This document shows, one piece after another, positions 4,136 through 43,613 of a stretch of DNA of 46,736 nt. Made by a program: the position numbers and the translations under genes. Origin of the DNA: Draconibacterium orientale (GTDB lineage: Bacteria > Bacteroidota > Bacteroidia > Bacteroidales > DYQJ01). Under the pieces are notes generated by a model that made no database searches, was not told the origin of the DNA, and worked only from the letters and a program-made list of their open reading frames with translations. Numbering within the stretch: the first letter of the stretch is position 1; the number at the start of each line of letters is the position of its first letter. The stretch is taken from positions 1 through 46,736 of the forward strand of contig DYQJ01000002.1 of assembly GCA_020719345.1 (NCBI GenBank), given 5' to 3'.

Positions 4136-6700
4136 TTATTGATTATTAATTTCTTTATTGATTTCGGTTAAAGCCAGATTCCATATACTTTTTAAATTAG
4201 ATATTTGTTCGGTTAATTCGTTAATATTGGTTTTATTGGTTGCTATTTCTTCTATTTTTTTTGCTATCTCTCTAAGTTCTTTTGCTCCTATATAATTGAA
4301 CGTAGATTTCAAAGTGTGCGCTATTGTTCTTAGGACGTCCCATTTTTCTTTATAAAACGATTTCTCCATTTCTATTAATTGGTTCGGTACATTTTGTTGG
4401 CAAAGACTTAAAATATAGTCTATTTTTTTCTTATCGTTCTTGTACATTTGTCTTAAGAGGGACAAATCTATAATATTATAATTATTATACAAAATAAGAT
4501 GGTCATTATTATTTTTTTCTTCGTCTCTTTTAAAATTTCTTTTTGTTAGACGATATATGTGTTGTATTATTTCTTTGTCAATTAGCGGTTTGGTTAAGAA
4601 GACGTTCATGCCTGCTTCTAAGCTTTTGTTTACTTCGTCTTTTATGGCATGCGCAGATAGTCCGATGATAGGAATTTGATTTTTTGGTGTCGGCATCTTA
4701 GTGCGAATGAATTTAGTTGCCTCGTTACCGTCAATGTTAGGCATTCTTATGTCCATGATGATAATATCATATTCCTGATTTTCTAACATTTTAATGGCAA
4801 TTTGTCCGTCTTGTGCGGTGTCAATTTTTATGTTAGGTTCGTAGAGGTTTAGCGTATCTAATAATAGTTTTGTATTTATTGCGTCATCTTCGGCGATTAG
4901 GATTCGCAAATTAGCGAAGTCCATCTTTTCTGCTTTATGTTCGGTTGTTTCTTCTTTTTGGGCATTTTCGTTTTCGTATTCATTAGAAATAATCGGTAGC
5001 GTGAAAAAAAATGTAGTTCCTTTTTTTTGTTCCGATTTGAACCATATTTTTCCGCCCATTTCTTCTATTAAGTGTTTACTTATAGATAGTCCGAGTCCCG
5101 TTCCGCCGGGGTTTCGCACCTCCGAGTCAAGAATTTGTCCGAATCGGCTAAAAATGATGTTGTGTTTGTCCTCCGGTATTCCTATTCCTGAGTCTTGCAC
5201 GTAGAATTTAATTGTGTTGTTATCAACATATTGATATCCAAATTCTATGTGTCCGGTTTCAGTGAATTTCAAAGAATTAGAGAGCAAATTAGTAAAAATT
5301 TGCTTAAAACGGTTGCAGTCGGTATAAATACCAAAATTAGGGTCTTGATTTTCTTTGAACAATCGTATTTCTAAGTGGTCTTTTTCTTTGAGTGCTTTTT
5401 GTTTATTTGTATTATCTAAGAGTTCGTCCAGTATTTTATTTACTCGGCATTTAGATTTTTTAATTAGTATTTGTCCGGCTTCTATCTTAGCTACGTCGAT
5501 GATGTCGTTAATTAGACTAAGCAAATTGTTTCCGCTGTTCTCTATGTAAGCGAAATATTCTTGTCGTTGGTTTTTAGAGAGTTCGTGTTTGGCGAGGAGT
5601 TTAGAGAATCCGAGTATAGCATTTAGCGGTGTTCGTATCTCATGCGAGATGTTGGCGAGGAATGCCGATTTCAGTCGGTCGGATTCTTCGGCTTTGTCCT
5701 TAGCAATGAGTAAGTTTTCAGCATAAGATTTTAGTTCTTGTTCAAATTTTTTTCTCTCCAATGCGATAGCGATATGCTCGGAGATGAATGCAAGTAGTTC
5801 CACGTCTTTTTCGGTGAAGACATTTTTTGTTTTGTAATTTTGCACTACCATGACTCCGATTGTTTTGTCTCGTGTTTTTAGCGGGACTCCGAGCCACGAT
5901 GGTGATGGTGTTCCTACCATTTCTACCTCGCCGTTTTTAATAAGTTCATTATCAATATATTCGGAGAGCAGAAGCGGTTTACCTTTTCTTCGGACGTAGT
6001 CTGTCAGACTTTTTTTGAGGGACTGCGGTTTTATTTTACTTATCTCGTCATATTTGTCCACGTAAAACGGGAAGCTGTAGATGTCATTAGCTTCGTCATA
6101 AAGTGCTACATAGAAATTTGTTGTGTCAATAATTTGAGTTAATTGCTGATGTATGAAGCTGACGAGTTCATTAATATTTGCTACCGAGTGGACGATTTCG
6201 TAGATGTCCAATAATATTTGCCATATTTTTACGGAGCGCGTAGTTTCAGTTATATCTATATAATAAACTATTGCGCCAATTATTTGATTATTATTATTGT
6301 AGAGCGGTCGATAGACATCTTTATAATAATATCTTTGTGCGTTCTTTAAATAATCTCCTACTTGGAAAAATTCTTCGCTGTTAAGCGCGCGTTTTAGCTC
6401 TAATTCTAAATTTCGGGTGTCGGTATAGTTTTTCAAGGTCTCTACAATATTCATTCCGGTAGTAATTTCTTTTCCGATAGTCGCTTTGATATGTTGCAAA
6501 TAATTGTTATTGAAAGCGATGAAGTTTAATTTTTTATCTACCGCGAAAATAATTGTTTCGTCTGGTATTTCTATGACCGAGTTGACTAATATCTGCAAGT
6601 CTTTTAAGTTCATGCTCTGCATCTCGTTTTTTTCATCTTGCAATAGCAAGACTTGTTTTTCCAGTTCGTTGATGCGTGTTATTAATTCGTTATTTTCCAT
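4136..6700 (-). CDS. Hybrid sensor histidine kinase (coiled coil-PAS-GAF-HisKA-HATPase-REC-HPt)
   Basis: H-box SHEIRTPLNAILGF. G-boxes DSGIGIP and GGTGLGLSI. Receiver IIIMDIRMPNIDG...LSAH. C-terminal HPt AHTLKSTFNYIGA. Confidence 0.9.
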   Translation of the reverse strand: MENNELITRINELEKQVLLLQDEKNEMQSMNLKDLQILVNSVIEIPDETIIFAVDKKLNFIAFNNNYLQHIKATIGKEITTGMNIVETLKNYTDTRNLELELKRALNSEEFFQVGDYLKNAQRYYYKDVYRPLYNNNNQIIGAIVYYIDITETTRSVKIWQILLDIYEIVHSVANINELVSFIHQQLTQIIDTTNFYVALYDEANDIYSFPFYVDKYDEISKIKPQSLKKSLTDYVRRKGKPLLLSEYIDNELIKNGEVEMVGTPSPSWLGVPLKTRDKTIGVMVVQNYKTKNVFTEKDVELLAFISEHIAIALERKKFEQELKSYAENLLIAKDKAEESDRLKSAFLANISHEIRTPLNAILGFSKLLAKHELSKNQRQEYFAYIENSGNNLLSLINDIIDVAKIEAGQILIKKSKCRVNKILDELLDNTNKQKALKEKDHLEIRLFKENQDPNFGIYTDCNRFKQIFTNLLSNSLKFTETGHIEFGYQYVDNNTIKFYVQDSGIGIPEDKHNIIFSRFGQILDSEVRNPGGTGLGLSISKHLIEEMGGKIWFKSEQKKGTTFFFTLPIISNEYENENAQKEETTEHKAEKMDFANLRILIAEDDAINTKLLLDTLNLYEPNIKIDTAQDGQIAIKMLENQEYDIIIMDIRMPNIDGNEATKFIRTKMPTPKNQIPIIGLSAHAIKDEVNKSLEAGMNVFLTKPLIDKEIIQHIYRLTKRNFKRDEEKNNNDHLILYNNYNIIDLSLLRQMYKNDKKKIDYILSLCQQNVPNQLIEMEKSFYKEKWDVLRTIAHTLKSTFNYIGAKELREIAKKIEEIATNKTNINELTEQISNLKSIWNLALTEINKEINNQ

Positions 6701-15047: not shown

Positions 15048-15749
15048 TCAGACCGTTAAAATATTATTTCCAATTTCATCTATTATTATTTTCTGATTTT
15101 CAAAGTTTTCAACTATAGAGAAACCATTATAAAACGGTTCAATTTGCAAATAGCGTTGCCGGTATAATTCGTTTCCTTGTTTATCAATATGGAACCAACC
15201 GTTTACGTCTTTTGCGGTAGCATAATCTTTGTGAAATATTCCTAAATCAAGAAAATATTTTCCGTTTAGGTTGTTTCCTTGTTTATCAATATGTTTCCAG
15301 CCGGTTTGATTTTTCACACAACAATAACCGTCTTTGTAATCTCCTGCATAAAAATATTCTTCGGTGTAGATTCGGTTGCCGTTCTTATCAAGATGAAAAT
15401 ATTTATTGTTTTGTGTTCTGACGGTGCAAACATTTTCCTGATAATTTCCGCACCAAGAATAATTTTCGTTGTAAATTCGTTCTCCATTTTCATTGATATG
15501 AAACCAATCATTTTGATTATCAATCACTGCGGCACAATTGCAATAAAAACCGAAGCATTTTAAATAACGTTCTTTGTATAATTCGTTTCCATTTATATCA
15601 ATATGAAACCAGCCCGATTTGTCTTTTACAGGCGCCAGACCGGGTGCGTGAAATTTCATAACTTTTTCAAATTCTTTATCAAAAAGTTTATTGTTTTGAA
15701 AAAGAAAAAACTTGCTGTCCTGTGATATTTGTATGTCGTTGTATTTCAT
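15048..15749 (-). CDS. WG-repeat (KWG-like) protein with no signal peptide
   Basis: About 8 repeats of WFHI(D/N)xxGNxxY and WKHIDKQGN. The ATG overlaps the upstream stop (ATGA at 15746-15749). Confidence 0.75.
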   Translation of the reverse strand: MKYNDIQISQDSKFFLFQNNKLFDKEFEKVMKFHAPGLAPVKDKSGWFHIDINGNELYKERYLKCFGFYCNCAAVIDNQNDWFHINENGERIYNENYSWCGNYQENVCTVRTQNNKYFHLDKNGNRIYTEEYFYAGDYKDGYCCVKNQTGWKHIDKQGNNLNGKYFLDLGIFHKDYATAKDVNGWFHIDKQGNELYRQRYLQIEPFYNGFSIVENFENQKIIIDEIGNNILTV

Positions 15750-17179
15750 TTGTTTAGCAATATATTTTTAACTAAAGAAATTTGATTTACATTTAATAGA
15801 CACGAAAGCAAATATTTTTCAATACCACCTTCTTGCTCAATTATTTCTAAAATAATTTGCAAATGTTTTAAATCCACGTCCATTTCGCTTGCTAAATAAT
15901 CGTTGTTAATGCTTTGTAAATTTGCGTTAGAAAGTAAATGAAACAACGTAATTACAAAACCTGTTCGGTCTTTACCTGCCAAACAATGTATGCAAATTGA
16001 ATTATCACTGTTGGCGATAATTGTTTCTATTATTATTTTAACACTTGATTTACAATCTAATACAAAATATTTATACGCAATTTCAACGTTTGTTCCGGTA
16101 TTAACTAAATTTTTAAATTCAAAACTTTGTTTCCATGGGTTAAAAGGTGCGCGAACAATGTTATATTTTGATTTTAAATTTTCGGAATAACTATTTTCAT
16201 CAATTTCTCTGTCGGCTCTTAAATCTATGATTGTCTTTATGTTAAGTTTTTGAAGCGTCTCAATTAAAATGTTTTCTTCTTTGATAAGAGAAAGTGCTGA
16301 GCTACGAAAAATAAATCCGTTTTTGATTTTTTTATTAAATTTGGAAATATCTCTAAAATTCCAAAAGAAATCGCGTTTGTAGATTGTTTCAAGAAAGCTA
16401 ATTATGTCATTTGTTTGTAGTTGTAGGTCAAATTTTGAATTAGCAATTTCTAAATATTTTATAAATAAATCGAGTAATTTTCGTTTGTGCCAATTAGCCA
16501 GACGCAAATCCATTGTTCCTAATTTTTCAATTTCTAAGTTTTGTTTGTAACTTATCGAGGTTAAAAAATTATTTGGCATGTAATCGTGTTCGGTATTTCC
16601 TTGGCAAAAATAAACAAGTCGGACAACTGCATTCAAAGCGTGTGAAAATAAAACATTGAATTTATAGCCGTCACTCTTAGAATGATTATAAGAACAGCCC
16701 TCAAAACGATTTTGAAATTCTGTGATTAAATTTTTTATTTTGTAAGAGAATTCTTTGGCGAAATTTTTTTGTTTTAAAAGCGTGATATTATTCAGATATT
16801 CCAAAATAGAATTAGATTTATCAAAAATGATAGTGTTTTCCGGCACTTTAATTTCAGAGCCAAGAAAATATTTATCAATTTCTGTTTTTGAATAGCAAAC
16901 AAATATTTCGGTAATCATAAAAATTTCCGAAAAATAAAAACACCATTTATTTTTTTCAGACAAAAATAACATATATTTTAGTTCGTCTTGAAATTCTTTT
17001 TTTAGGTTATCTACAAAAAGATTATTATCAAAATCTTTTGTTACAATTATTTGATAGTCAATATCGCTATTAGGTTTAGGTGTTCGGCGACCAAAACTTC
17101 CTATGAGCAAAACAGTTTCTATTGTTTCTGTTTTAGCGAAAAAAGTATTTAATTTTTTTATTAAATTATATTGTATCAT
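15746..17179 (-). CDS. Fusion protein: Pol-beta-superfamily nucleotidyltransferase (ANT/KNTase-like) plus C-terminal Cys-based protein-tyrosine-phosphatase-like domain
   Basis: The N-terminus has IGSFGRRTPKPNSDIDYQIIV (GSx..DxD NTase motif). A helical middle region follows. The C-terminus has IIDLRADRE and CIHCLAGKDRTGFV (HCx5R(T) P-loop). Confidence 0.7.
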   Translation of the reverse strand: MIQYNLIKKLNTFFAKTETIETVLLIGSFGRRTPKPNSDIDYQIIVTKDFDNNLFVDNLKKEFQDELKYMLFLSEKNKWCFYFSEIFMITEIFVCYSKTEIDKYFLGSEIKVPENTIIFDKSNSILEYLNNITLLKQKNFAKEFSYKIKNLITEFQNRFEGCSYNHSKSDGYKFNVLFSHALNAVVRLVYFCQGNTEHDYMPNNFLTSISYKQNLEIEKLGTMDLRLANWHKRKLLDLFIKYLEIANSKFDLQLQTNDIISFLETIYKRDFFWNFRDISKFNKKIKNGFIFRSSALSLIKEENILIETLQKLNIKTIIDLRADREIDENSYSENLKSKYNIVRAPFNPWKQSFEFKNLVNTGTNVEIAYKYFVLDCKSSVKIIIETIIANSDNSICIHCLAGKDRTGFVITLFHLLSNANLQSINNDYLASEMDVDLKHLQIILEIIEQEGGIEKYLLSCLLNVNQISLVKNILLNK

Positions 17180-17313
17180 ATTTTAATTGAGTTTATAAAA
17201 ATGTTAGTAATTGTTTTATTTTTGTTTTTTTTTAAAATGATTGAAACTGCTGTCTTTTCAAAATAATTCTCACGTGTTATTTTCATAATTATTTATTTTT
17301 TTTAGTAAAAAGT

Positions 17314-17344
17314 TTTGTTGTTATGTATAAATGTATTATCTTTG
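17314..17344 (+). promoter_or_regulatory. Consensus Bacteroidota promoter on the + strand (TTTG-N19-TAtcTTTG), unit 1
   Basis: tttg at 17314-17317 and tatctttg at 17337-17344. This is one of three copies of the same ~70-nt element. Confidence 0.55.
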
Positions 17345-17350
17345 TTCTAA

Positions 17351-17434
17351 TAAAAAAGATTATGAAAGGCAGTGGCTTTCACGCAAAACCGGCACCGAGA
17401 ACTGTTCTGTCGGTTTTCTTTTTTATTTTTTTTT
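17351..17434 (+). ncRNA. Candidate small RNA 1 (promoter to stem-loop plus T-run)
   Basis: aaaaccg(17385-17391) pairs with cggtttt(17411-17417) and is followed by cttttttattttttttt. No credible ORF. It converges on the 3' end of the frameshifted small gene. Confidence 0.35.
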
Positions 17435-17825
17435 ACGCAAATCAAAAGCCGTTAATATAAATTTTTTATTTTTTCCTTTCCACTCAGTTATTATTACAAC
17501 TCTAAACATATCACTTTCAAGTAAAATTTTTTGTTGTTTCTTTTGCTTTAACAAGATTCCCTAACTTTGCTATTATAGGTATAAAGTCTTCAATATTAAA
17601 TCCTAATTCTTTAATTTCGTGTCCATGTTTTTCGTAAATATGTTTTAAACCGTACCCTTTATTATTTTTATCATTTTCGCCCCAAACAATATCAATATAA
17701 CCTATGTCTTCTCTGTATAAAGCATTTATACATTCGCCTTCTTGCACCTTTAATAAAAGTTTTATTGCTTCCTTCGGTTTGTTTTTAAATTCCGTATAAA
17801 CCGTTCCAAATTCGTTTTTTTCCAT
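17423..17825 (-). pseudogene. Small H-x-KH protein paralogue 1, interrupted by a 1-nt frameshift in an A6/T4 run
   Basis: The ATG at 17825 is preceded by a -7 box TAtcTTTG (rc of 17847-17854). The reading frame stops at 17517. The +1 frame continues as ILLESDMFRVVIITEWKGKNKKFILTAFDLRKKK to 17423, which is homologous to the C-terminus of paralogue 2. Confidence 0.6.
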
Positions 17826-17990
17826 TTTATCATTTTTAATTTCCTGCAAAGATATATTATTTTTCAACAGTTTGATTTCTATTTGCAACAGTTTGGGCGT
17901 AAATGACATGATTTTCATATATTATTTTTTTAGTAAAAAATTTTGTTATTAATTATAAATGTATTATCTTTGTGCTAATAAAAAGTTGTT
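17578..17990. repeat. Tandem direct repeat, copy 1 (period 662 bp; near-identical to 18240-18652)
   Basis: Same sequence at offset 662 with few mismatches. It covers the 5' two-thirds of the small gene, its leader, and the + strand promoter element. Confidence 0.85.
17942..17972 (+). promoter_or_regulatory. Consensus Bacteroidota promoter on the + strand (TTTG-N19-TAtcTTTG), unit 2
   Basis: tttg at 17942-17945 and tatctttg at 17965-17972. Confidence 0.55.
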
Positions 17991-18092
17991 TTTCGGAGCA
18001 GTGTTCCGTTAGTAAAATTAATGGCGAATGCGCTTTCGTTAATTCCAATTTTTCAGAAACCTGTAATTTATTTTACAGGTTTTTTATTTTTT
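17979..18092 (+). ncRNA. Candidate small RNA 2 (~110 nt) ending in a 10-bp stem intrinsic terminator
   Basis: aaacctgtaa(18057-18066), a 6-nt loop, then ttacaggttt(18073-18082), followed by tttattttttat. The T-run is only on the + strand. The stop codon of the convergent gene (18068-18070) lies in the loop. Confidence 0.4.
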
Positions 18093-18487
18093 ATCGGTCT
18101 CAAATCAAAAGCACTCAATAAAAATTGCTTGTTTTTTCCATTCCATGTTGTTTTAATTATCACTCTAAACATTTTACCTTCTAAATATATTTTATCATCT
18201 TTTTTTGACAAAAATAAGTTTCCAAATTGCACGACAATAGGTATAAAATATTCAATATCAAATCCTAATTCTTTAATTTCGTGTCCATGTTTTTCGTAAA
18301 TATGTTTTAAACCGTACCCTTTATTATTTTTATCATTTTCGCCCCAAACAATATCAATATAACCTATGTCTTCTCTGTATAAAGCATTTATACATTCGCC
18401 TTCTTGCACCTTTAATAAAAGTTTTATTGCTTCCTTCGGTTTGTTTTTAAATTCCGTATAAACCGTTCCAAATTCGTTTTTTTCCAT
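18068..18487 (-). CDS. Small H-x-KH protein paralogue 2 (intact; possibly a barnase/EndoU/colicin-E5/RelE-like PBECR-type nuclease)
   Basis: The likely start is MEKNEFG at 18487, with a -7 box TAtcTTTG 21 nt upstream (rc of 18509-18516). Contains GYGLKHIYEKHGHEIKELGF and a C-terminal LLSAFDLR. The family assignment is tentative. Confidence 0.6.
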   Translation of the reverse strand: MEKNEFGTVYTEFKNKPKEAIKLLLKVQEGECINALYREDIGYIDIVWGENDKNNKGYGLKHIYEKHGHEIKELGFDIEYFIPIVVQFGNLFLSKKDDKIYLEGKMFRVIIKTTWNGKNKQFLLSAFDLRPIKNKKPVK

Positions 18488-18652
18488 TTTATCATTTTTA
18501 ATTTCCTGCAAAGATATATTATTTTTCAACAGTTTGATTTCTATTTGCAACAGTTTGGGCGTAAATGACATGATTTTCATATATTATTTTTTTAGTAAAA
18601 AATTTTGTTATTAATTATAAATGTATTATCTTTGTGCCAATAAAAAATTGTT
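18240..18652. repeat. Tandem direct repeat, copy 2
   Basis: See 17578-17990. A third partial copy containing only the promoter element lies at 17281-17352. Confidence 0.85.
18604..18634 (+). promoter_or_regulatory. Consensus Bacteroidota promoter on the + strand (TTTG-N19-TAtcTTTG), unit 3
   Basis: tttg at 18604-18607 and tatctttg at 18627-18634. The downstream ~100 nt contain tacggct/agccgta pairing but no clear terminator. Confidence 0.45.
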
Positions 18653-18735
18653 ACGGCTCTAAAAACGCTGTCCTTACTGACTACGAAAAATCACAGTATC
18701 GGAAAGAAAAGAGAAACAAGCCGTAGTTAATTGTT

Positions 18736-19116
18736 TCAAATGGGTGCGTTCCTTTGCCATAGCAATTTTTTATTTTTTAGATAGCTATTTCGCATTGGAG
18801 TTGCCGTCATCACCAAATAATATTCTCCATCATATTTATAAGTTAGTTCTACTACCGCAATATTACTTTTATGTTCATCTTCCACGATTAAAAATATAGA
18901 GTTGTTTTTTCCTTGCCTAATAACATTAAAATTTATTGTGATAATTTTAATATAATCTAATGGATTTAAACCTAATGCCTCTAACTCTTTACTATGTTTT
19001 TTATCAACATGAGTAATACTTTTTTCATTTGCAATAATTTTATCTGGCTTGTTTCTTATTATTTCCGCAATTTCTTGCGTAATTTCACCAACCACATCAA
19101 ATTCTTTATTTTCCAT
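18736..19116 (-). CDS. Small H-x-KH protein paralogue 3 (divergent member of the same family)
   Basis: Starts MENKEFD at 19116 behind the same leader (aattaaaaatgataaaATGgaaaa) and a -7 box (rc of 19138-19145). THVDKKHSKELEALGLNPLDYIKII aligns with KHIYEKHGHEIKELGFDIEYFIPIV. TATPMR aligns with LSAFDLR. Confidence 0.6.
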   Translation of the reverse strand: MENKEFDVVGEITQEIAEIIRNKPDKIIANEKSITHVDKKHSKELEALGLNPLDYIKIITINFNVIRQGKNNSIFLIVEDEHKSNIAVVELTYKYDGEYYLVMTATPMRNSYLKNKKLLWQRNAPI

Positions 19117-19153
19117 TTTATCATTTTTAATTCTCGGCAAAGATATTTTTCAT

Positions 19154-20173
19154 TCATGGCTTTCGCATATTACAAGTTTTACATAATGTTTTTTGTTTGT
19201 AATTTTTCACTAAATCAATGTAAACAGAACTATTTAAAATAGATGTAAGTGATTGATTTTGAATGTTTCCAAAAAGTCCTAATGTTTTTCGTAAATTGTC
19301 GGGGGCGCAGCAAGGTGAAATATCTCCTGTTGCAGAAATCCACAATTCACGAGTTAAAAACGGACACTCGTAATTTTCCTGTATTTCTTTATTTTCATTA
19401 AGCTGTAAACGAAAAAAGTTTTCTAAAATTACTTTTTTGCCGTTTTTTCGTTTGAATTTTTCTGCCGAATTTTTTGCTGTTTCAACTATCGTATTCCATT
19501 GATTAATAGTTTGTTCTGTTTTTTTAAAAGATAATTCTTCCAATTCTTTGTAATGTGTCCAAACATGATGTCCTTTTATTCTGTCAATATCCAAATCTGC
19601 GGCTAATTGTATTATGTCGCTGATTTGGTGCATATTGCTTTGTAAATAAGTAATTTGAAAAGTTAAAGTGCAATAATTTCCGCTTTGCTCAAAAATTGAA
19701 TTTCTTATTTTTGAAAATGTTTTGATATTTTCAATTTGTTTGTTGAAATTCAAACCTTGCATAATACCTTCGGCTGTTTTTTCTGTTGCTCCGTTTAGCG
19801 AAAATTTAATATCTTTTGTAACGGGAATTATTAAATTAGCCCATTGGTCTGCTGTTTTTCGCGGAGAAGTTCCGTTTGTTGTCAAATTAAGTTTGATATT
19901 GTATTTTTTGCACAATTCCAAAAAAGTTTCAAAATGTTCGTAAAGCAATGGCTCTCCCATTGTAGTTGGAATAATTTCCTGAATATTCAATTCTTTTGCT
20001 TGCGTAAAAATATTTTCTAACCACTCTTTTGGCATTAAACGTTGTTTAAGTCCCGTTTCACGAAACAAATTTTCTTTAAAATTGCTTAAAAGACTGTGTT
20101 CTTCGCACATAATACAATGCAAATTGCATAATTCGGGATTAGTATCAACGGTTATTCTAAACAAAGATTTCAT
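19154..20173 (-). CDS. Radical SAM enzyme with C-terminal SPASM/twitch-like Cys cluster
   Basis: CNLHCIMC is a CX3CX2C motif. The C-terminal CPFLTRELWISATGDISPCC matches Cx12Gx4C, followed by CKTC. It overlaps the upstream glycosyltransferase gene by 17 nt. Confidence 0.8.
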   Translation of the reverse strand: MKSLFRITVDTNPELCNLHCIMCEEHSLLSNFKENLFRETGLKQRLMPKEWLENIFTQAKELNIQEIIPTTMGEPLLYEHFETFLELCKKYNIKLNLTTNGTSPRKTADQWANLIIPVTKDIKFSLNGATEKTAEGIMQGLNFNKQIENIKTFSKIRNSIFEQSGNYCTLTFQITYLQSNMHQISDIIQLAADLDIDRIKGHHVWTHYKELEELSFKKTEQTINQWNTIVETAKNSAEKFKRKNGKKVILENFFRLQLNENKEIQENYECPFLTRELWISATGDISPCCAPDNLRKTLGLFGNIQNQSLTSILNSSVYIDLVKNYKQKTLCKTCNMRKP

Positions 20174-21452
20174 TTTTCGGTATCAGTTTTTTGTAAATTA
20201 ATATTAATTCCTTACAATGTTCCAGAATATTTGGAACTTCTCCGTTTTCGGAATATAAATAACCGCGAGTACCTAACTGTTTCATTACTTGCGGATTTAG
20301 TATTGCAAATTTCATTTTTTCAGATAAATCATCTGGGTTTCTATGCTCAAATAATAAACCGTTTTCATTGTGATTAACATATTCTTTCATTCCACCAAAA
20401 TTGGAAGTAATAACGGGAATTTTACACGCTTGCGCTTCGTGGATAACCAGAGGCGAATTTTCTCCCCAAATTGAAGGCACAACAATAGCATCAATATTTG
20501 AAAAAACGTCTGACGCCAAATTATGATTAATATATTCTCCAACAAATTCAACTTTGTTTTTATATTTTGTTACTAATTTTTTCAAATATTGTGTGTATTG
20601 ATTTTCTCTTCCCCAGATTTTTAAAGTGGCTTTTTCATTTATTTTAGAAAATGCGGTAATCAATAAATCTAAACCTTTTGCAGGAATGTGAGTTCCAATG
20701 TAACCAAAAGTAAATATTTCGTTTCTTTTTTGTGAAACAGGTGTCAAATAGTGCAGCGGAAATCCGTAATCAAGATAGACGATTTTTGATTTAGGAACAT
20801 TAAAATCATTTATAAATCTGTTCATTAAGTATTTTGAAGGCGCAATAAACAAATCAACTTTTTCAATTATAGATTTTGTTTGATTCATGCGAGAATTTAT
20901 CCACGAAGTCCAATAGTCCATATCTCTCTCATAATCATCTTTTTGTCCTGAGAAATAGCGGTTATAACAATTTTCGGCACATTTTCTGTTTTCCTGCAAA
21001 TCACAAAGTTGATGAAAATTTTGATTGCCGAAATTGACTTGTAAAAATTGTCCGCGTGGACACATCAGCCAAAAATCGTGTAGCGTAAAAACAATAGGAA
21101 TATTTTGTTTCTTCAGTTCATCAATTATTCCGGTAGAAAGGTGGTTAAGATGCCCGATGTGAGCAACATCGGGTTTTGTATCTTGCAATAATTTTGCGAA
21201 ATTTTCATCTAATTTATGGTGTCTGTATCCGTCTTTTCCGCGTGGAATATTTACAAAATATAGCATTAAGCTTTCATTTTCTATTTGTTTACGAATTAAA
21301 AAATCAGGTTCGTAAATGTTTTCTTCTCTTGTAAAAATAATTATTTCGTGTTGCTTTGCCAATTCATTACAAATAGATTGACTGTACACTTCCGAACCTG
21401 CATTATAATTTGGCGGATATCCGTGAATTATTTTTAATATTTTAAGTTTCAT
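20157..21452 (-). CDS. Glycosyltransferase, GT4 (GT-B) family
   Basis: 431 aa. Begins ILKIIHGYPPNYNAGSEVY, and the C-terminal WGENSPLVIHEAQACKIPVITSNFGGMKEYV resembles the EX7E region. Confidence 0.8.
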   Translation of the reverse strand: MKLKILKIIHGYPPNYNAGSEVYSQSICNELAKQHEIIIFTREENIYEPDFLIRKQIENESLMLYFVNIPRGKDGYRHHKLDENFAKLLQDTKPDVAHIGHLNHLSTGIIDELKKQNIPIVFTLHDFWLMCPRGQFLQVNFGNQNFHQLCDLQENRKCAENCYNRYFSGQKDDYERDMDYWTSWINSRMNQTKSIIEKVDLFIAPSKYLMNRFINDFNVPKSKIVYLDYGFPLHYLTPVSQKRNEIFTFGYIGTHIPAKGLDLLITAFSKINEKATLKIWGRENQYTQYLKKLVTKYKNKVEFVGEYINHNLASDVFSNIDAIVVPSIWGENSPLVIHEAQACKIPVITSNFGGMKEYVNHNENGLLFEHRNPDDLSEKMKFAILNPQVMKQLGTRGYLYSENGEVPNILEHCKELILIYKKLIPKNEIFV

Positions 21453-21504
21453 CTTTATTTAAGTTTTTTCGGTTTTACTTTTTTGAGATGTTACAAAAAG
21501 ATAA

Positions 21505-22632
21505 TCAATTAGTATATAAAATATAGTTTTGATATATTTTAGCAATTCCTTCCTGCATGGTTATTTTAGGTTTCCAGCCGTATCCGTTAATTTTTTCTAC
21601 GTTAAGTAATTTTTGTGGTGTTCCATCTGGTTTGTTGGTATCCCATTCTATGTTACCTTCAAATCCGACAGTATTTTTTATCATTTCGGCGAGCTGCAAT
21701 ATGGTTAAATCTTTTCCGATTCCTATGTTTATATGAGTATTTTTAATTTCTGGAGTTGTCATCGGATAAGAATAATCAGTGATGTTATATTCTTTGAGTA
21801 ATATGTCCGTAAAATTTAAGTTCTTCATAATAAACACGCATGCATCTGCCAAGTCGTTAGCATGCAGAAATTCGCGTTTCGGAGTTCCAGTTCCCCATAG
21901 TTTTACTTCGGCAGTTTTATTAGTTCTAATTATTCCGTATTTATGTAAAATATCTAATATACAATTCATATCACTTTCGCCGGTTACTTTCTCTATGGGA
22001 TATTTGTTCAAATCTTGTCGTATTGTGTCCCAATTTTCATTCATTAAAGCTTTCGCAAGGTGCATTTTTCTTAGTATTGCGGGTAGTACGTGCGATTTTT
22101 CCAAGTCAAAATTATCATTATATCCGTACAAATTAGTAGGCATTACGGCGATGAAGTTTGTTCCGTATTGCAAATTGTAGCTTTCTACTGTTTTTATGCC
22201 GGCAATTTTAGCGATGGCATAAGGTTCATTGGTGTATTCTAATGTGTCGGTGAGTAAATATTCTTCTGCGATAGGTTGTTTGCAAAGTTTAGGATATATG
22301 CACGAGCTTCCTAAGAACAACAATTTTTTAACGTCATACTTATAAGCACAATGAATAATATTACTTTGAATCATAATATTTTCGTAAATAAACTGTGCGC
22401 GATAAGTATTATTTGCAACTATACCACCAACTTTAGCTGCTGCTAATACGACATATTCGGGTCGTTTGCTTTTAAAAAAGTCTTCTACTTGTGATTGGTT
22501 TATCAAGTCATATTCTGGATATGGAGTGTAAACTAAGTTGTTATATCCGTCTTCGTGTAATTTTCTTACAATAGCACTACCTACAAGTCCGGTGTTTCCG
22601 GCTACATAAATTTTAGATTTTTGTTCCATCAT
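21505..22632 (-). CDS. fcl: GDP-L-fucose synthase (GDP-4-keto-6-deoxymannose 3,5-epimerase/4-reductase)
   Basis: VAGNTGLVGSAI, AAAKVGGIVANNTY, LLFLGSSCIYPK, NEPYAIAKIAGIK, MPTNLYG and KPDGTPQKLL align along the length of E. coli Fcl. A ~40-aa insertion is present. Confidence 0.9.
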   Translation of the reverse strand: MMEQKSKIYVAGNTGLVGSAIVRKLHEDGYNNLVYTPYPEYDLINQSQVEDFFKSKRPEYVVLAAAKVGGIVANNTYRAQFIYENIMIQSNIIHCAYKYDVKKLLFLGSSCIYPKLCKQPIAEEYLLTDTLEYTNEPYAIAKIAGIKTVESYNLQYGTNFIAVMPTNLYGYNDNFDLEKSHVLPAILRKMHLAKALMNENWDTIRQDLNKYPIEKVTGESDMNCILDILHKYGIIRTNKTAEVKLWGTGTPKREFLHANDLADACVFIMKNLNFTDILLKEYNITDYSYPMTTPEIKNTHINIGIGKDLTILQLAEMIKNTVGFEGNIEWDTNKPDGTPQKLLNVEKINGYGWKPKITMQEGIAKIYQNYILYTN

Positions 22633-22642
22633 TATATTATTT

Positions 22643-25600
22643 TTACAGTTTTATACCTACAATAGTTATATCATCTCTTTGTTCTGAATTAGCTTGGAAT
22701 TTAATAAGTTCGTTATCTAATACTTCTTTTTGTGTGTTCATCTCAAGATGACAAATATTTTGCATTATTTGTATCATTCGTTTTTGCTTGAAGCTGTCTC
22801 TGTTAGGATTATTTTGGTCTGCATATCCGTCAGAGGTTAGATATATAATACTTTGTTTGAGAAGCGCAATTGTCGTGTTTTCAAATTTTTCGGTATTATA
22901 CGTTGATTGTCTTCCACCTGCGGATTTGCGAGTTCCGGATATTTTGTTTATTATCATATCTGTGGCATTTAGATAGAATAGCGGTCTCTTGGCGCCGCAA
23001 AAAGTGACATTATAAAGTTTGGGGTTTTCCTGTTCTATTCGGCACAAACAAATATCCATACCGTCATTGTTATGACTTTCTTCTTGATTCAGCGCTTTAA
23101 TAATATTTTTATTTAACATGTCCAAAATATCAGCTGGCGAATATATATTTCGTTCATTTACAATTTCATTTAGCAAACGGTTACCTATCATAGACATGAA
23201 TGCTCCTGGTACGCCATGCCCTGTGCAGTCGATGACTGCGATAAAATTATAGGTTGTTTTTTCGGTAGCGGTTTCCACATTTTTAGACGAAAACCAATAG
23301 AAGTCTCCACTAACTATGTCTTTAGGACGATATAATATAAAATTGTCATAAAATTTTTGGATCCATTTTTCTGAAGGTAAAATAGCTTGCTGTATAGTTT
23401 CTGCATAATTAATACTCTTTTTTATATTATCATTTTGAAATTCAATCTTCTTATTTTTTTCACGTATCTCCATCTCCGCTTCTTTGAGTTTAGAAATATC
23501 GGCATCTATACCTATAATTTTGATTATTTGAGAGTACTCGTCTAATATTGGGGTTAGTGTTGTCTGTACCCATATTTCTGTTTTCTGTTTTGAACAGAGC
23601 TTTTGTTCGAAAATAATAGTGTGCTTGGTATCAATAAGTTGGTCAAATATTTTAATCATATTAGTATTTTTAAAACTCTCTTTAATATTTGTGCCATATA
23701 CCGCAGTGTACTCGTCTATCTGATATCCGTACAGTCGTGTGAATCCTTCGTTTATCCACTCTATTTCGCCGGTGTTGTCAGTAATTATAATTGCATTGTC
23801 GGTTTCTGCGGCTACAATAGATAATTTTAGTAGTTCATCATTAATGGCTTTTAGTTCTTCTGCTTGTGCTTGAATTTCGTCTTTTTGTTGATTTAAGAGT
23901 TGGTTTTTTTGCATTATTTCCTGCGTTCTATCTACTACTTCTTGTTCAAGTTTTTGTTTTTGACGTTCTATTCTTTGCAGTCGCCATCTGAAAATGGATA
24001 ATACTAAAAAGATAATAAAAAAGAAGGACATTATTCGGAAGAGCCATGTTTCCCAGAATGGTGGATGTATAATAATAATCAACGATTTCCCTACTTCGTT
24101 CCATGTTCCGTCATTATTAGAGCCGCGGACTTTAAAGACATAACGTCCTGGGTCAATGTTAGTATAATACGCCAGACGATGCGAGGCACTTGCTTTTAGC
24201 CAATGTTTATTAAATCCTTCTAATTTGTATTCGTACTCGTTTTGCGAGGGATTGCTAAAATGAAGCGCCGAGAACTCGAAGGCAAAAATTTCATCGGTAT
24301 AAGATAATTCTATTTTGTCGGTTAAAATAATAGATTTTTCCAATTTCTCGCCTATTTTTACTTCTTCATTAAAAAGTTTAAAAGATGTGATGACAATCGG
24401 TGGCACAAAATCGTTATTTTCTATTTGTTCGGGGAAAAAAGCATTTAAGCCGTTAATACCACCGAAAAATAGTTCCCCTGTTTTGCTTTTACAACCGGCG
24501 CCCCAGAAAAACTCTTTACTTTGTAATCCATCATTTTCGTCGAAGATAGTGAAACGTTCTGCCTTGACATCTAATTTAGATATTCCTTTATTTGTGCTTG
24601 CCCATATATTTCCTTCCGAGTCGTCGTATAAACAATAAATAACATTATTAGAGAGTCCATCTGCTTCAGTATATGCAACAAAATTCGGGGTCTCTTTGGT
24701 AAAACTTAATTTGTTTATCCCTCCGCCAAAAGTTCCTATCCATATATTTTGTTGTTTGTCTATCAATAAAGAGATAATTCTGTTATCGCCAAGCGAATTA
24801 ATGTCGTCTTCTGTGTGTTTAAAAATTTCTACTTTTGTATCTGCTATATTTCCATTGTAATTTATTTTATTTAATCCCTGCCATGTTCCTACCCAAATAT
24901 TTCCTTGCGCATCTTCTTGTATAGCAGCTTGAATACTTGTGCTACTTAAAGTAACAATTTCACTAAAACGGATAAAGCTGTCCTTTTTTTTATCGTACAA
25001 ATTTAATCCTTTTGCTGTGCAAATCCAGAGATTTTTGCGAGTATCTTCATAAATAGCTTGAATCGTGTTGTCGGAGATAGTATTTTTGTCGGTCTCCGAA
25101 AATTTGTAATTGATAAAATAATCTATCTTAGTCAGTCCATTTCTTTCATTCTTTTTCTCCACAGCTCTATTTAATCCATGTTCCCATGTTCCTATCCACA
25201 AATTGCCGTAGCTGTCGCGAAGCATTGCGGTAGGAGTGTTAGAACTTATTGTTTTAGAATTATTTTTATTGTGAAGATATTTATCTGTTATTAAAGAGTT
25301 TCTGTCAAAATGTATTAATCCGCCCTCGACGAGTCCTAACCAAAGTGAGGCATCGGTATCTTCATACACTGCGCGAACTGTTTTATCAGGAATGCTGTTC
25401 GGATTTGAGATGCTATTTTGATATAACATGAACTTATTAGATTTTTTATCGTACTTGCTAAGTCCTCTTTCCCATGTACCTATCCAAATAATTCCGGCAT
25501 TGTCTTGAAAAATGCTTGAGATGTTGTCATGATTTATTCCCTTGGGATTTGAGGCGCTGTGCTTGAAGACATAAAAATTGTCGTCTTTGCGATTATAAAT

Positions 25601-26497
25601 ATTTAATCCGTTACTTGTTCCTATCCAGACATTGTTATCAGCATCAACAAAAATCTTTGTTACTATATTGAAGCTCAAGCTGTTGTTATCATTTTCTTTA
25701 TTGGCGTACTTTGTTATTTTCTCTTTAGTAGGTTCATATCTGTACAATCCAATTTTACTGCCTATCCATATTTCTCCATTTTTATCGGTAGTTATAGATA
25801 AGATAGCAGGAAAAGTGTTCTTTTCAAGATTAAAATAGGTTATCTTATTTGTTTTTAAGTTCAAAATATTTACTCCGCGTTCAGTTCCTATCCACAGATT
25901 ATTTTTTTTATCTAACATAAGTGCGTTCACTTTGTCGTTTGCAATAGTATTGCTGTCGTTTTGGTGTCTGAAGTGTGTAAAAATATTTTGTTTGACATTA
26001 AATTTATTTAGTCCATAGTTTTCTGTTCCGAGCCATAAATTACCGGTTTCATCTTCTAATATGCAACGGATGACATTGTCGGATAGCGAGTTCGTGTTTT
26101 CTGGGTCATGTTCGTAATGTGTAAAAAGTTCATTTTCTACATTATATCTGTTTAAGCCATCTCCATTTGTTCCTATCCATAGCGTATTGTCGCGGCAGAG
26201 ATAAATATCAAAAATTATATTTCCGGAGATTGAATTATTTGCGTTCTTCTCTTTTTTAAATATTGTAAAATCATATCCATCATATCTGTTCAGTCCATCG
26301 TGTGTTCCAAACCAGATGAAACCCAAGTTGTCTTGCACTATACTAAGAACCGAGCTTTGTGAGAGTCCATCATCTATAGAGATATGCTCAAAGCGTATAT
26401 TCTGTGATATAACGGGCTTAATAACAACAAATAACAATATTAGCAACAGCCAAATACCTAAATATCCGGGTCTAAGTTTTCTAATGGATAGGTTCAT
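22643..26497 (-). CDS. Sensor protein: periplasmic two-component-regulator beta-propeller repeats plus Y_Y_Y, TM, coiled coil, PAS and PP2C/SpoIIE phosphatase
   Basis: Many W(I/L)GT..GL repeats, then a TM (WLFRIMSFFFIIFLVLSIF). PAS (IIITDNTGEIEWINEGFTRLYGY) and a C-terminal SGDFYWF...DGYADQ...RDDITIVGIKL follow. The first ATG is at 26497, while the track ORF starts at a TTG at 26533. Confidence 0.85.
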   Translation of the reverse strand: MNLSIRKLRPGYLGIWLLLILLFVVIKPVISQNIRFEHISIDDGLSQSSVLSIVQDNLGFIWFGTHDGLNRYDGYDFTIFKKEKNANNSISGNIIFDIYLCRDNTLWIGTNGDGLNRYNVENELFTHYEHDPENTNSLSDNVIRCILEDETGNLWLGTENYGLNKFNVKQNIFTHFRHQNDSNTIANDKVNALMLDKKNNLWIGTERGVNILNLKTNKITYFNLEKNTFPAILSITTDKNGEIWIGSKIGLYRYEPTKEKITKYANKENDNNSLSFNIVTKIFVDADNNVWIGTSNGLNIYNRKDDNFYVFKHSASNPKGINHDNISSIFQDNAGIIWIGTWERGLSKYDKKSNKFMLYQNSISNPNSIPDKTVRAVYEDTDASLWLGLVEGGLIHFDRNSLITDKYLHNKNNSKTISSNTPTAMLRDSYGNLWIGTWEHGLNRAVEKKNERNGLTKIDYFINYKFSETDKNTISDNTIQAIYEDTRKNLWICTAKGLNLYDKKKDSFIRFSEIVTLSSTSIQAAIQEDAQGNIWVGTWQGLNKINYNGNIADTKVEIFKHTEDDINSLGDNRIISLLIDKQQNIWIGTFGGGINKLSFTKETPNFVAYTEADGLSNNVIYCLYDDSEGNIWASTNKGISKLDVKAERFTIFDENDGLQSKEFFWGAGCKSKTGELFFGGINGLNAFFPEQIENNDFVPPIVITSFKLFNEEVKIGEKLEKSIILTDKIELSYTDEIFAFEFSALHFSNPSQNEYEYKLEGFNKHWLKASASHRLAYYTNIDPGRYVFKVRGSNNDGTWNEVGKSLIIIIHPPFWETWLFRIMSFFFIIFLVLSIFRWRLQRIERQKQKLEQEVVDRTQEIMQKNQLLNQQKDEIQAQAEELKAINDELLKLSIVAAETDNAIIITDNTGEIEWINEGFTRLYGYQIDEYTAVYGTNIKESFKNTNMIKIFDQLIDTKHTIIFEQKLCSKQKTEIWVQTTLTPILDEYSQIIKIIGIDADISKLKEAEMEIREKNKKIEFQNDNIKKSINYAETIQQAILPSEKWIQKFYDNFILYRPKDIVSGDFYWFSSKNVETATEKTTYNFIAVIDCTGHGVPGAFMSMIGNRLLNEIVNERNIYSPADILDMLNKNIIKALNQEESHNNDGMDICLCRIEQENPKLYNVTFCGAKRPLFYLNATDMIINKISGTRKSAGGRQSTYNTEKFENTTIALLKQSIIYLTSDGYADQNNPNRDSFKQKRMIQIMQNICHLEMNTQKEVLDNELIKFQANSEQRDDITIVGIKL

Positions 26498-26629
26498 CTT
26501 ATTACTTTTGAAAGATAAAAAAAACAAACTCAAATATAACTTTTTTGTTTTAATAAAACAAATTTTAATAAAATTTTATATAAATTTGTTGATATTTTGT
26601 TTTTATTGTATATTTGTTGAAAAATTCTT

Positions 26630-42176: not shown

Positions 42177-43613
42177 TTATTTTATTTTACGAATTTTTAT
42201 TTTTAGCACCGCAAAGAGCATCGTCATAAATGGACTGATGATATTGAAAAAGCAATAAGGCAGATACGATAATGTACTAACTCCCAAGATGCCCGATTGA
42301 GTGGCACCGCAAGTATTCCATGGAATTAGAACAGAGGTAACAGTTCCTGAATCTTCTAAAGTACGGCTGAGAACCTCCGGAGCAAGTCCTTGCTGTTTAT
42401 AAATATCAGCATACATTTTACCGGGGACAACCAGAGAGATATATTGGTCAGAGGCAGTGATGTTGAAAAAGATACAACTAAAAGCCGTAGAGATAATTAA
42501 CGAAGTGGTAGTTTTGGCTACTTTTAAAATACTGGAAGATATTTTGCTTAGCATACCTCCGGCATCCATAGTGCCTCCAAAAATCATAGCGGCGAGAATC
42601 AACCATACAGTGTTCAACATTCCGGACATTCCAGAAGTGCTAAAAAGCGAGTCAACGTTGATATTTCCTGTTGTCACGCTGATATTTCCATACATTGCTT
42701 GCATCATTATTTTGTAAGAGTTCATAAAAGATATTTCTCCGCCGGCAGATAACTGTTGTATGACATCTTCTTGAAAAATAAGAGATAAGATGGCGCCAAG
42801 TAAAGTTCCTATTAATAAAGACGGGATTGGCGGCGTCTTTTTTACTATAATTATTATTAATAATATTGGGACAATAAACAGAATAGGACTGATGAAAAAA
42901 GTGTTTTTTATAGCCGTTTGAACTGCATTCACATCGTTTGTAGAGTCTTGCAAATCTAAGGTAAATCCCATGAACAAAAATATAAGTAATGTAATAATTA
43001 AAGTCGGAACAGTTGTATATAACATATATTTAACATGCGTGAATAAATCTGTTCCAGCCATTGCTGGTGCTAAATTGGTGGTGTCTGAGAGAGGAGATAT
43101 TTTATCGCCAAAGTAAGCACCGGAGATGATTGCGCCGGCGACCAGCGGTTTGCTGATACCTATAGTAGTTCCGATTCCGATGAGCGCGATTCCGAGAGTA
43201 GCAATTGTTGACCACGAGCTTCCTGTCGCCAATGAAACAATGGCACAAATAATTACCGTAGCAAATAAAAAGATTCGGGGTTGTAAGATGTCTAAACCAT
43301 AGTAAACTAATGCAGGAACTATTCCGCCGATGAGCCATGTTCCAGATAATGAACCTATTAATAACAATATAATAATAGAAGGCATGGCATCACTGATTGT
43401 TGAAACGATGCGGCTCCGTATGTCAGTCCATTTTACACCTTTATAAATCGCTATCACAGAGGCAAGTGCTGCACTAAAAAACAATGCGAGCTGATTAGCA
43501 CCGTCCAGAGTAGCATCTTGCCAGATAATTACGTTCAACGTTAATAACGCTATCAATAAGATAATAGGTACAAAAGCAGTGAAAAGCGAAACATTTGTTT
43601 GTTTGTCGTTCAT
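42177..43613 (-). CDS. nhaC: Na+/H+ antiporter NhaC family
   Basis: 478-aa polytopic protein. GAYFGDKISPLSDTTNLA is the conserved NhaC motif. Confidence 0.85.
   Translation of the reverse strand: MNDKQTNVSLFTAFVPIILLIALLTLNVIIWQDATLDGANQLALFFSAALASVIAIYKGVKWTDIRSRIVSTISDAMPSIIILLLIGSLSGTWLIGGIVPALVYYGLDILQPRIFLFATVIICAIVSLATGSSWSTIATLGIALIGIGTTIGISKPLVAGAIISGAYFGDKISPLSDTTNLAPAMAGTDLFTHVKYMLYTTVPTLIITLLIFLFMGFTLDLQDSTNDVNAVQTAIKNTFFISPILFIVPILLIIIIVKKTPPIPSLLIGTLLGAILSLIFQEDVIQQLSAGGEISFMNSYKIMMQAMYGNISVTTGNINVDSLFSTSGMSGMLNTVWLILAAMIFGGTMDAGGMLSKISSSILKVAKTTTSLIISTAFSCIFFNITASDQYISLVVPGKMYADIYKQQGLAPEVLSRTLEDSGTVTSVLIPWNTCGATQSGILGVSTLSYLPYCFFNIISPFMTMLFAVLKIKIRKIK

Follow-up and report, generated by a model that had tools for sequence, protein, structure and literature searches.

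The window considered here is the whole stretch of 46,736 nucleotides (nt) taken from the Draconibacterium orientale assembly GCA_020719345.1 (contig DYQJ01000002.1, positions 1 to 46,736 of the forward strand). Its 17.2-19.2 kb region contains three small minus-strand genes encoding PBECR-type proteins, and this analysis deals with these genes and with the small RNAs (sRNAs) predicted to be encoded opposite to their 3' ends. The region is flanked by a radical-SAM gene and by a gene encoding a nucleotidyltransferase-phosphatase fusion (NTase-PTP); relative to the gene order, the small genes lie downstream of the former and upstream of the latter. All the open reading frames (ORFs) of at least 100 amino acids (aa) taken as genes at 15048-26533 are on the minus strand. 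A repeat search of the window recovered a 67-nt direct repeat, named D2, in three copies (17290-17356, 17918-17984 and 18580-18646), the other two being 87-88% identical to the first. All of them contain a plus-strand promoter pointed at the 3' end of a minus-strand gene.

Two of the small genes belong to the PBECR1 family (Pfam PF18809, cut-off 27.6 bits), which is the only Pfam family matched by them. Copy 2 (18068-18487, minus strand) is intact, encodes 139 aa from MEKNEFG and scores 56.1 bits, and copy 1 (17423-17825, minus strand) is frameshifted, being divided between the ORFs 17517-17918 and 17423-17554 (47.2 bits, E 3.5e-12). The frameshift is located in or near an A6T4 run at ~17527-17536, and the same split gene call is repeated in an independent JGI contig (locus L003). 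A real pseudogene, slippage or an assembly error common to the records could explain it. The third gene (18736-19116, minus strand) encodes 126 aa from MENKEFD. Its match to Pfam PBECR3 (PF18812) is weak, with an E-value of 0.018 and 15.4 bits versus a cut-off of 30, and hhalign relates it to the PBECR1 profile across the BECR core (probability 85%, E 6e-6). Because of this link through the BECR core and the PBECR3 score below the cut-off, it is named here a divergent PBECR-type gene and not a PBECR3 member. It has 282 remote relatives, which are solo proteins or are embedded in giant polyvalent proteins. PBECR domains have been described as predicted ribonucleases (RNases) of the polyvalent proteins of phages and conjugative elements, and they are viewed as effectors that are delivered when the element enters (Iyer, Burroughs, Anand, de Souza, Aravind 2017, PMC5512222). 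The PBECR proteins matched only families of unknown function in PHROGs and had no match in PADLOC (PADLOC-DB 2.0, anti-phage defence) or NCBIfam. The AlphaFold2 model of PBECR1 copy 2 presented a pLDDT of 85. Its GLKHxxxKH motif contains two invariant histidines, H62 and H67 in the numbering of the 139-aa protein.

The starts of these genes are located at 17825, 18487 and 19116 (MEKNEFG or MENKEFD) and not at MKIMSF, since each of them has its own minus-strand TATCTTTG in a second repeat, D3, and since the homologues are 134-155 aa long (PBECR1 homologues are common, with 373 proteins). In D3 the TATCTTTG box is found ~25 nt before ATG-GAA-AA. D3 copy 1 (17807-17858, minus strand, -7 box at 17854-17847) comprises the promoter, the 5' untranslated region (UTR) and the start codon of PBECR1 copy 1; D3 copy 2 (18469-18520, minus strand, -7 box at 18516-18509) comprises the promoter and start of PBECR1 copy 2, and D3 copy 3 (19098-19149, minus strand, -7 box at 19145-19138) those of the PBECR3-like gene. 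The plus-strand D2 promoters and the minus-strand D3 promoters are thus divergent, with a spacing of ~110 bp.

Regarding the plus strand, the exact pattern TTTG-N19-TATCTTTG is found at 17314-17344, 17942-17972 and 18604-18634, once in each D2 copy (-33 boxes at 17314-17317, 17942-45 and 18604-07; -7 boxes at 17337-17344, 17965-72 and 18627-34). An earlier note on this DNA had described a ~70-nt element occurring three times, each copy with a Bacteroidota promoter of this TTTG-N19 type antisense to the surrounding genes. The repeat and its promoters were recovered, and the coordinates given for the element were a few bases off. The consensus of the primary Bacteroidota sigma factor (sigma-ABfr) consists of a -7 box TAnnTTTG and a -33 box TTTG (PMC7366714), and all three window copies carry both boxes at the N19 spacing. 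Moreover, the window contains 13 occurrences of the looser pattern TTTG-N17-21-TAnnTTTG versus 3.45 +/- 1.87 expected, and none of 100 shuffles reached 13. Judging from the sequence, the D2 promoters would be active in transcription.

Terminator-like hairpins were found on the plus strand only, at 17397-17418 in unit 1 and at 18055-18084 in unit 2 (12 pairs, then TATTTTTTAT), so both units contain the G+C-containing hairpin and the following U-run of an intrinsic terminator. The stop codon of the ORF 18068-18580 (18068-18070) is inside the loop of the unit 2 hairpin, and the stop codon of the frameshifted copy (17423-17425) is inside the unit 1 T-run. The earlier note had pointed to stem-loops with a plus-strand-only T-run in these two units and to the position of the convergent stop codons within the terminator loop or the T-run, and both observations hold, with small shifts in the coordinates (the unit 2 stem had been given there as 10 bp at 18057-18082).

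Unit 1 encodes the predicted sRNA-1 (17350-17434, plus strand), identified by a match to the covariance model R1 of the PBECR1-associated RNA family described below (17351-17424, 61.7 bits, E 6e-15), by the terminator scan and by its fold. It is formed by hairpin P1 (17362-68/17376-82), a GCAAA linker, hairpin P2 (17388-94/17408-14), which also serves as the terminator stem, and a U-run at 17415-17434. The predicted sRNA-2 of unit 2 (17978-18096, plus strand) belongs to the same family (R1 match at 17980-18053, 62.2 bits, E 4e-15; fold z-score -4.5; terminator). In this RNA a closing helix P0 (~17981-88/18047-54) encloses P1 (17991-97/18005-11), the GUAAA linker (18012-16) and P2 (18017-23/18037-43), and the terminator hairpin at 18055-18084 follows, with a U-run to ~18096. 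These two units are the only strong R1 matches in the window, and unit 3 is unmatched. A weak R1 match at 42807-42887 on the minus strand (17.7 bits, E ~0.01), within a 478-aa ORF, is most likely a false positive.

The comparison of units 1 and 2 showed ~70% identity in the 3' third of the gene and about 40-50% in the RNA body. These bodies had been called non-conserved in the earlier note, a description that has to be corrected, as despite this low identity both fit one covariance model at ~62 bits. The block ~17590-17985 compared with ~18252-18647 presents 100% identity per 40-nt window over ~17600-17940 and 98% onward to the end of the repeat. This block of ~400 bp is the product of a recent duplication or gene conversion with a breakpoint inside the gene, and this is the reason why promoter copies 2 and 3 are identical.

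To place these units in a wider frame, 79 genome loci and 3 viral loci of PBECR1 homologues were retrieved (loci are given below by their L numbers). In L001 and L002, the first two loci read, the sequence directly 3' of the PBECR1 gene contains on the opposite strand a -7 box followed by a body of ~100 nt and by a hairpin with a T-run across the stop codon. An opposite-strand TAnnTTTG is located 40-200 nt 3' of the stop codon in 76 of 85 gene copies, mostly at 78-87 nt. The R1 model gave 87 matches in 83 loci, including loci outside its seed, all of them opposite to the gene strand and nearly all directly 3' of PBECR1; nine of nine further non-seed loci from other protein clusters were also positive. 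Altogether, the module is present in about 90 loci from many Bacteroidota lineages, with Segatella copri (L013), Capnocytophaga catalasegens KC07084 (L019) and Draconibacterium orientale (L079) among the carriers that can be cultivated. Among the 82 distinct R1 matches, 74 have an adjacent 5' TAnnTTTG and 81 a 3' T-run, and 67 of 74 homologous sites carry TTG or TTTT at -33. The promoter is hence a conserved feature by itself, because the -7 box is kept at 74 of 82 distinct sites while its flanks differ from those of the window in the loci read. The possibility raised in the earlier note that the element is merely a duplicated upstream region applies to copies 2 and 3, which are identical by duplication, but it does not account for the -7 box at these other sites.

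No conserved protein partner was found, the commonest real neighbour family occurring in no more than 8 of 81 loci. PBECR1 has a constant partner in the RNA alone, and the pair moves as a unit. Its contexts are chromosomal or else phage-like and conjugative-element-like, the latter with integrase, polyvalent LPD3, ArdC and MPTase proteins, holin and lysozyme encoded nearby. The phage records contain PBECR1 only in the form of domains with 35-38% identity, which are parts of annotated genes in phages of Helicobacter and others, and it was not found in plasmid records. RNA identity and protein identity are weakly correlated (Spearman 0.17 and 0.23).

Several of these loci present particular arrangements. 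The gene order of the window, here with PBECR1 coming after a relative of the third gene, is repeated in L010 (1931-2893), L017 (1371-2893) and L061 (1390-2896), all of them from Bacteroidales, so the arrays of PBECR paralogues with RNAs are a recurrent arrangement. In L036 (200-3784, Flavobacteriaceae) the PBECR1 domain is within a 1194-aa ORF that continues in frame, immediately after the domain, through a degraded copy of the RNA sequence (32.8 bits). This looks like the fusion of a solo module into a polyvalent protein, or like the opposite event. Locus L033, labelled as a metagenome-assembled genome (MAG) of Anaerolineaceae, is nearly identical across the module to L005, from a Marinilabiliaceae MAG, and the promoter is of Bacteroidota type in both; the label Anaerolineaceae probably results from an error in binning.

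The structure of the RNA was analyzed with an alignment (A2) of 37 non-redundant sequences, units 1 and 2 of the window included. The shared architecture consists of the -7 box, GCAGUGUUG, hairpin P1, a GUAAAA linker, hairpin P2, UUUC and the terminator. RNAalifold predicted P1 and P2 with compensatory changes in 14 of 14 pairs. Furthermore, 90.7% of the P1/P2 cells are paired versus 33-45% with slid pairing, and the covariation score was 0.907 versus 0.10-0.24, the former being reached by none of 500 shuffles. The covariation analysis of homologous loci that the earlier note had proposed as a check thus revealed strong base-pair covariation. There are 40 G.U pairs versus 6 A.C mismatches, which indicates that the fold belongs to the strand opposite to the gene. 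A covariation scan of all columns gave one additional partner pair, which led to the closing helix P0. When P0 was tested, the duplexes of each RNA's own 5' and 3' segments had a mean of -3.69 kcal/mol versus -1.42 for cross-pairings, and none of 20000 permutations was as good. Since P0 is supported, the RNA core is a three-way junction; the same scan revealed no contiguous extra helix beyond P0 that could form a pseudoknot or a loop-loop pairing. The terminators have a mean of 7.1 T/9 on the RNA strand versus 3.9/8 on the gene strand, and a clear hairpin with T-run oriented on the RNA strand is found in 59 of 65 homologues. Rfam 15 gave nothing at the gathering threshold in the window and 15 related loci, and its E-value mode gave chance-level matches only (best STnc370, E 1.4). 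The PBECR1-associated RNA is therefore a well-supported new structured RNA family, absent from Rfam 15. The suggestion made earlier that the units are cis-encoded RNAs, possibly with a regulatory or antitoxin-like role, is supported by the ~90 Bacteroidota loci and by the covariation.

The decay of the module is one-sided. The RNase gene is damaged and the RNA intact in unit 1 of the window, by the frameshift, and in L058, by an internal deletion that joins the N-terminal ~45 aa of PBECR1 to its C-terminal ~20 aa (4360-4641; convergent RNA intact, 64 bits). Orphan RNA units are also kept in predicted transcripts with two units and one promoter (L005/L033, L050, L056 and L059). Among the loci with enough flank, no intact PBECR1 of this clade was seen without the RNA. 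This pattern fits an antidote, since damaged RNase genes keep their RNA and the reverse was never seen. Looking at the tandem RNAs themselves, L005 and L033 (2895-3041), L050 (2936-3075) and L056 (2925-3050) carry two units of unlike subtypes, or 1.5 units, with one promoter and one terminator. They probably derive from the deletion of the intervening RNase gene and are reminiscent of multi-repeat antitoxin RNAs.

Concerning unit 3, the candidate sRNA-3 (18641-18781, plus strand) would extend over the last ~15 codons of the gene 18736-19116. It has no clean short-loop terminator; instead, a long-range closing stem (18639-57/18756-74) is followed by a T-run. Its sole close relative, L086, presents TATATTTG at the same position, with a promoter sequence that differs from that of the window; between both loci the RNA body is 81% identical, the gene DNA 71% and the promoter flank 56%. 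The search for further relatives gave one close homologue of the third gene, none in a protein-based metagenome scan and two chance matches in a scan with RNA 19-mers. As two sequences cannot fix a structure, this RNA is a plausible, not proven, second type, and unit 3 would plausibly be the same kind of module with another PBECR-type gene and an unrelated RNA. In L086 (880-1892), genes for a Cas2-like protein and for a ParE-like toxin are found nearby, which suggests that this contig is a defence or toxin-antitoxin island.

The same layout was found at other solo effector genes of the retrieved loci. Among PBECR3 genes, relatives of the third gene (P3-like) and LPD3 genes, 12 of 13 are faced by a convergent -7 box, with a terminator across the stop codon, and the RNA bodies are unrelated. 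A mechanism depending on the geometry is favoured by this, because unrelated gene families share the layout and not the RNA. The solo LPD3 genes with predicted convergent sRNAs are located at L059 1438-1990, L060 763-1330, L061 1892-2440 and L062 670-1240. L059 and L060 have a common 3' RNA domain, ATCGGGATGAGAGAAYACCGG..AACCAGGACTCTTTAG, within the terminator hairpin, and L059 has in addition an R1-type core fused 5' of it.

Regarding these data, units 1 and 2 are very probably real sRNA genes, each encoding a structured RNA of about 80-115 nt. The RNA would end at the intrinsic terminator, whose 3' arm and U-run correspond, on the other strand, to the last codons and stop codon of the RNase gene. 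It would form with this gene a self-contained, mobile two-gene module, in which the RNA may act as an antidote or silencer of the RNase in a toxin-antitoxin-like manner. That the sRNAs are antidotes or repressors of the adjacent gene seems probable, and we give the complete reading, an RNase toxin with a convergent RNA antidote, a probability of about 0.55. The more likely mode, which is proposed tentatively, would be that the RNA pairs in cis, as an antisense RNA, with the RNase mRNA at its 3' end or in its 3' UTR, as in type I systems with overlapping 3' ends; the three-way junction could then provide stability and the hairpin loops the first contact. A direct binding of the RNA to the protein is a less likely mode, but one to be taken seriously.

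Some features weigh against an antisense antidote of an RNase toxin. The demonstrable overlap between the RNA and the coding sequence is only ~20-30 nt, and the sRNA core is no more complementary to its own mRNA than in cross-comparisons (own -28.1 versus cross -27.2 kcal/mol; longest perfect match 7.62 versus 7.66 nt). The antisense mode requires, therefore, either the short 3' overlap or a read-through of the mRNA across the sRNA gene. An antisense RNA acting in trans on the RNase mRNA was rejected, as there is no excess of complementarity. The unpaired nucleotides GUAAAA, and CGA and UU in the loops, hardly vary; together with the three-way junction, they exceed what a simple antisense RNA needs and would suit a protein-binding RNA. 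Moreover, type I toxins are typically small membrane peptides and not soluble RNases of ~140 aa. A Foldseek search of the PBECR1 model against the PDB gave no significant match (best E 0.27), the best of these weak matches being HigB/RelE and CdiA-CT. Finally, the promoter and terminator activities are predictions from the DNA letters, and the toxicity of PBECR1 to the host is presumed.

The protein-binding possibility can be formulated as a type III-like system, in which the three-way-junction RNA would bind the PBECR1 RNase as an inhibitor or pseudo-substrate and the overlap would merely keep the linkage. The proposed toxin is a predicted RNase and would hence bind RNA, and the part of the RNA outside the ORF overlap is the one with the strong structure and nearly invariant unpaired nucleotides, without trans complementarity of its core to the mRNA. 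Multi-unit RNAs exist, and the orphan units that have been kept would give immunity in trans. Nevertheless, the PBECR3, P3-like and LPD3 families share the geometry and not the RNA, the RNA subtype is weakly coupled to the protein sequence, and neither tandem repeats upstream on the same strand nor a ToxN-fold toxin are found here, and we regard it as a serious but less likely mode. A broader proposal is that Bacteroidota mobile elements carry a large unrecognised class of two-gene conflict modules, each with a solo polyvalent-type effector (PBECR1, PBECR3-like or LPD3) and its own convergent structured sRNA. In the PBECR1 family the RNA would inhibit the BECR-fold RNase by binding to it, possibly in the manner of a pseudo-substrate, and would thus be an antitoxin of new fold directed at a toxin fold that is new as well, and orphan RNAs would immunise against incoming copies; taken as a whole, this is speculative and has a low probability. 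A lower one still is given to sRNAs that are real without being antidotes, and that could time or limit entry effectors, insulate or terminate between cassettes, regulate other targets or bind a host factor. The phage-like or conjugative-element-like contexts, the view of PBECR domains as entry effectors (PMC5512222) and the same-strand genes that come after the module in many loci are in line with such functions. However, a timing device would not predict that the RNA outlasts the decay of the RNase and never the reverse, and the RNA is strictly tied to one gene family.

Two other explanations are both very improbable. According to one of them, the promoter-like motif is a by-product of duplication, that is, copied upstream DNA of the paralogues without function. 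Copies 2 and 3 are in fact within the ~400-bp block of 100% identity, and in this AT-rich genome there are 119 matches to TAnnTTTG alone in the window; against this, the -7 box is in the same position in 74 of 82 distinct sites with flanks unlike those of the window in the loci read, the downstream RNA covaries, and the counterpart of unit 3 in L086 has a different promoter sequence in the same place. The other assigns the fold to the gene strand, where it would be a 3' UTR or terminator element of the PBECR1 transcript, or takes it for a DNA site, for example a promoter that inverts or a recombination site like the attC of integrons. Covariation alone is blind to the strand, the genes are in cassette-like arrays, and the copy 1 promoter lies between the arms of a 19-nt inverted repeat with 79% complementarity (17281-99/17349-67). 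This inverted repeat is AT-rich, has its arms 49 nt apart and is missing from copies 2 and 3, though, and the G.U to A.C ratio, the -7 box and strong T-run on the RNA strand and the constant orientation in every locus argue for an RNA on the strand opposite to the gene. A phase-variable inverton was discarded, as the weak AT-rich inverted repeat is found in copy 1 only and the orientation is constant in all loci. As for attC, no R''/R' core (RYYYAAC/GTTRRRY) was seen by eye, and the structure is a three-way junction and not a single bulged hairpin.

Other features of the region deserve to be mentioned. Two direct repeats of 14 nt, TTTTCAACAGTTTG and TTTGCAACAGTTTG, with a spacing of 21 nt (family D7, strand unassigned), are located at 17861-17895, between the divergent promoters of the sRNA and the RNase gene, and a second pair is found at 18523-18557; a possible function is that of an operator for a regulator. 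A 36-aa ORF (MKITRENYF..., 17176-17286, minus strand) overlaps with its stop codon the start of the NTase-PTP gene. Its first codons are in the left flank of D2 copy 1 and are similar to the spurious MKIMSF extension of the PBECR1 ORFs, and it is probably a leftover of the duplicated block and not a gene. The NTase-PTP gene itself (15746-17179, minus strand), immediately downstream of the modules, encodes a Pol-beta-type nucleotidyltransferase fused to a tyrosine phosphatase (Y_phosphatase3). In PADLOC it matched weakly, at E 1e-4 to 1e-3, an oligonucleotide-cyclase model and the candidate system PDC-S09. This may be a further conflict-type gene on the same island.

If the proposed module of RNase and RNA antidote is correct, it would provide the first identified partner for the PBECR RNases, so far known from domain analysis alone, and it would add a well-supported structured RNA family with ~90 examples and strong covariation. 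To our knowledge, RNA-based toxin-antitoxin-like control is barely documented in Bacteroidota, which are important in gut and environmental microbiomes. The recurrence with PBECR3-like and LPD3 genes suggests a general rule that is easy to search for, namely a sigma-ABfr promoter convergent with the gene together with a terminator across the stop codon, which could reveal RNA antidotes and hidden toxins in Bacteroidota and supply compact pairs of RNase and RNA inhibitor as tools.

Among the known systems, convergent type I pairs with overlapping 3' ends are the closest in geometry, such as txpA/RatA and bsrG/SR4 of Bacillus subtilis prophages or the par locus of Enterococcus faecalis, where RNA I and RNA II share a bidirectional terminator. 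As in these systems, an RNA of ~100 nt is predicted to be transcribed toward the 3' end of the toxin gene and to overlap it, the setting is a prophage or mobile element, the RNA is structured with hairpin loops, and the terminator is shared or overlapping. By coordinates, the RNA is complementary to the toxin mRNA, as type I demands, the 3' ends overlapping over the stop codon and the last 6-15 codons. In contrast, the toxins of type I are small and usually hydrophobic, with peptides of less than 60 aa in the systems named, whereas the proteins here are soluble predicted RNases of 126-140 aa (126-139 aa in the PBECR proteins of the window). Furthermore, the ORF overlap is only ~20-30 nt with no second complementary region found, and a three-way junction with invariant unpaired bases is conserved in the RNA.

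The enterobacterial type I systems SymE/SymR and RalR/RalA also combine a nuclease toxin, rather than a membrane peptide, with an sRNA antitoxin, and in this respect they resemble the pair proposed here; however, in their case the pairing of the RNA takes place at the 5' or translation-initiation region, or internally, and the protein folds differ. Within Bacteroidota, the cis-antisense RNAs of the DonS family and the putative type I pairs of B. thetaiotaomicron use sigma-ABfr promoters (PMC7366714). The RNAs described here would likewise be cis-encoded antisense RNAs of Bacteroidota with a sigma-ABfr promoter, but the DonS-like RNAs are divergent to susC genes and not convergent with an RNase gene, and the putative type I pairs of B. 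thetaiotaomicron are divergently encoded, each with a candidate small ORF.

With the type III systems (ToxIN, CptIN, TenpIN) the module would share an endoribonuclease toxin, here a predicted one, countered by a structured RNA. These systems are also often phage-related, and a few loci here have multi-unit RNAs. Type III toxins have the ToxN/AbiQ fold. For the PBECR1 proteins the only Pfam family matched is PBECR1, and PADLOC gave no match for either PBECR protein. The type III antitoxins described in PMC8860590 are arrays of short direct repeats on the strand of the toxin, upstream of it and with a terminator between them, unlike the single opposite-strand unit found here 3' of a BECR-fold gene; the rare multi-unit RNAs of our loci have unlike units and are not tandem repeats of that kind. 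Regarding the PBECR polyvalent proteins (PMC5512222), the kinds of mobile elements are the same, and solo PBECR1 and PBECR3-like versions are found here. An RNA partner is not described there, and in the literature searched the PBECR domains are given as predicted RNases only, so the convergent sRNA is new information for this family. In summary, the module resembles the type I systems of B. subtilis and par of E. faecalis in its geometry and ToxIN in its logic, while it lacks defining features of both (a small peptide toxin, a same-strand repeat array, the ToxN fold), and the combination would bring together a new structured RNA family and a toxin fold that is new for RNA-based control.

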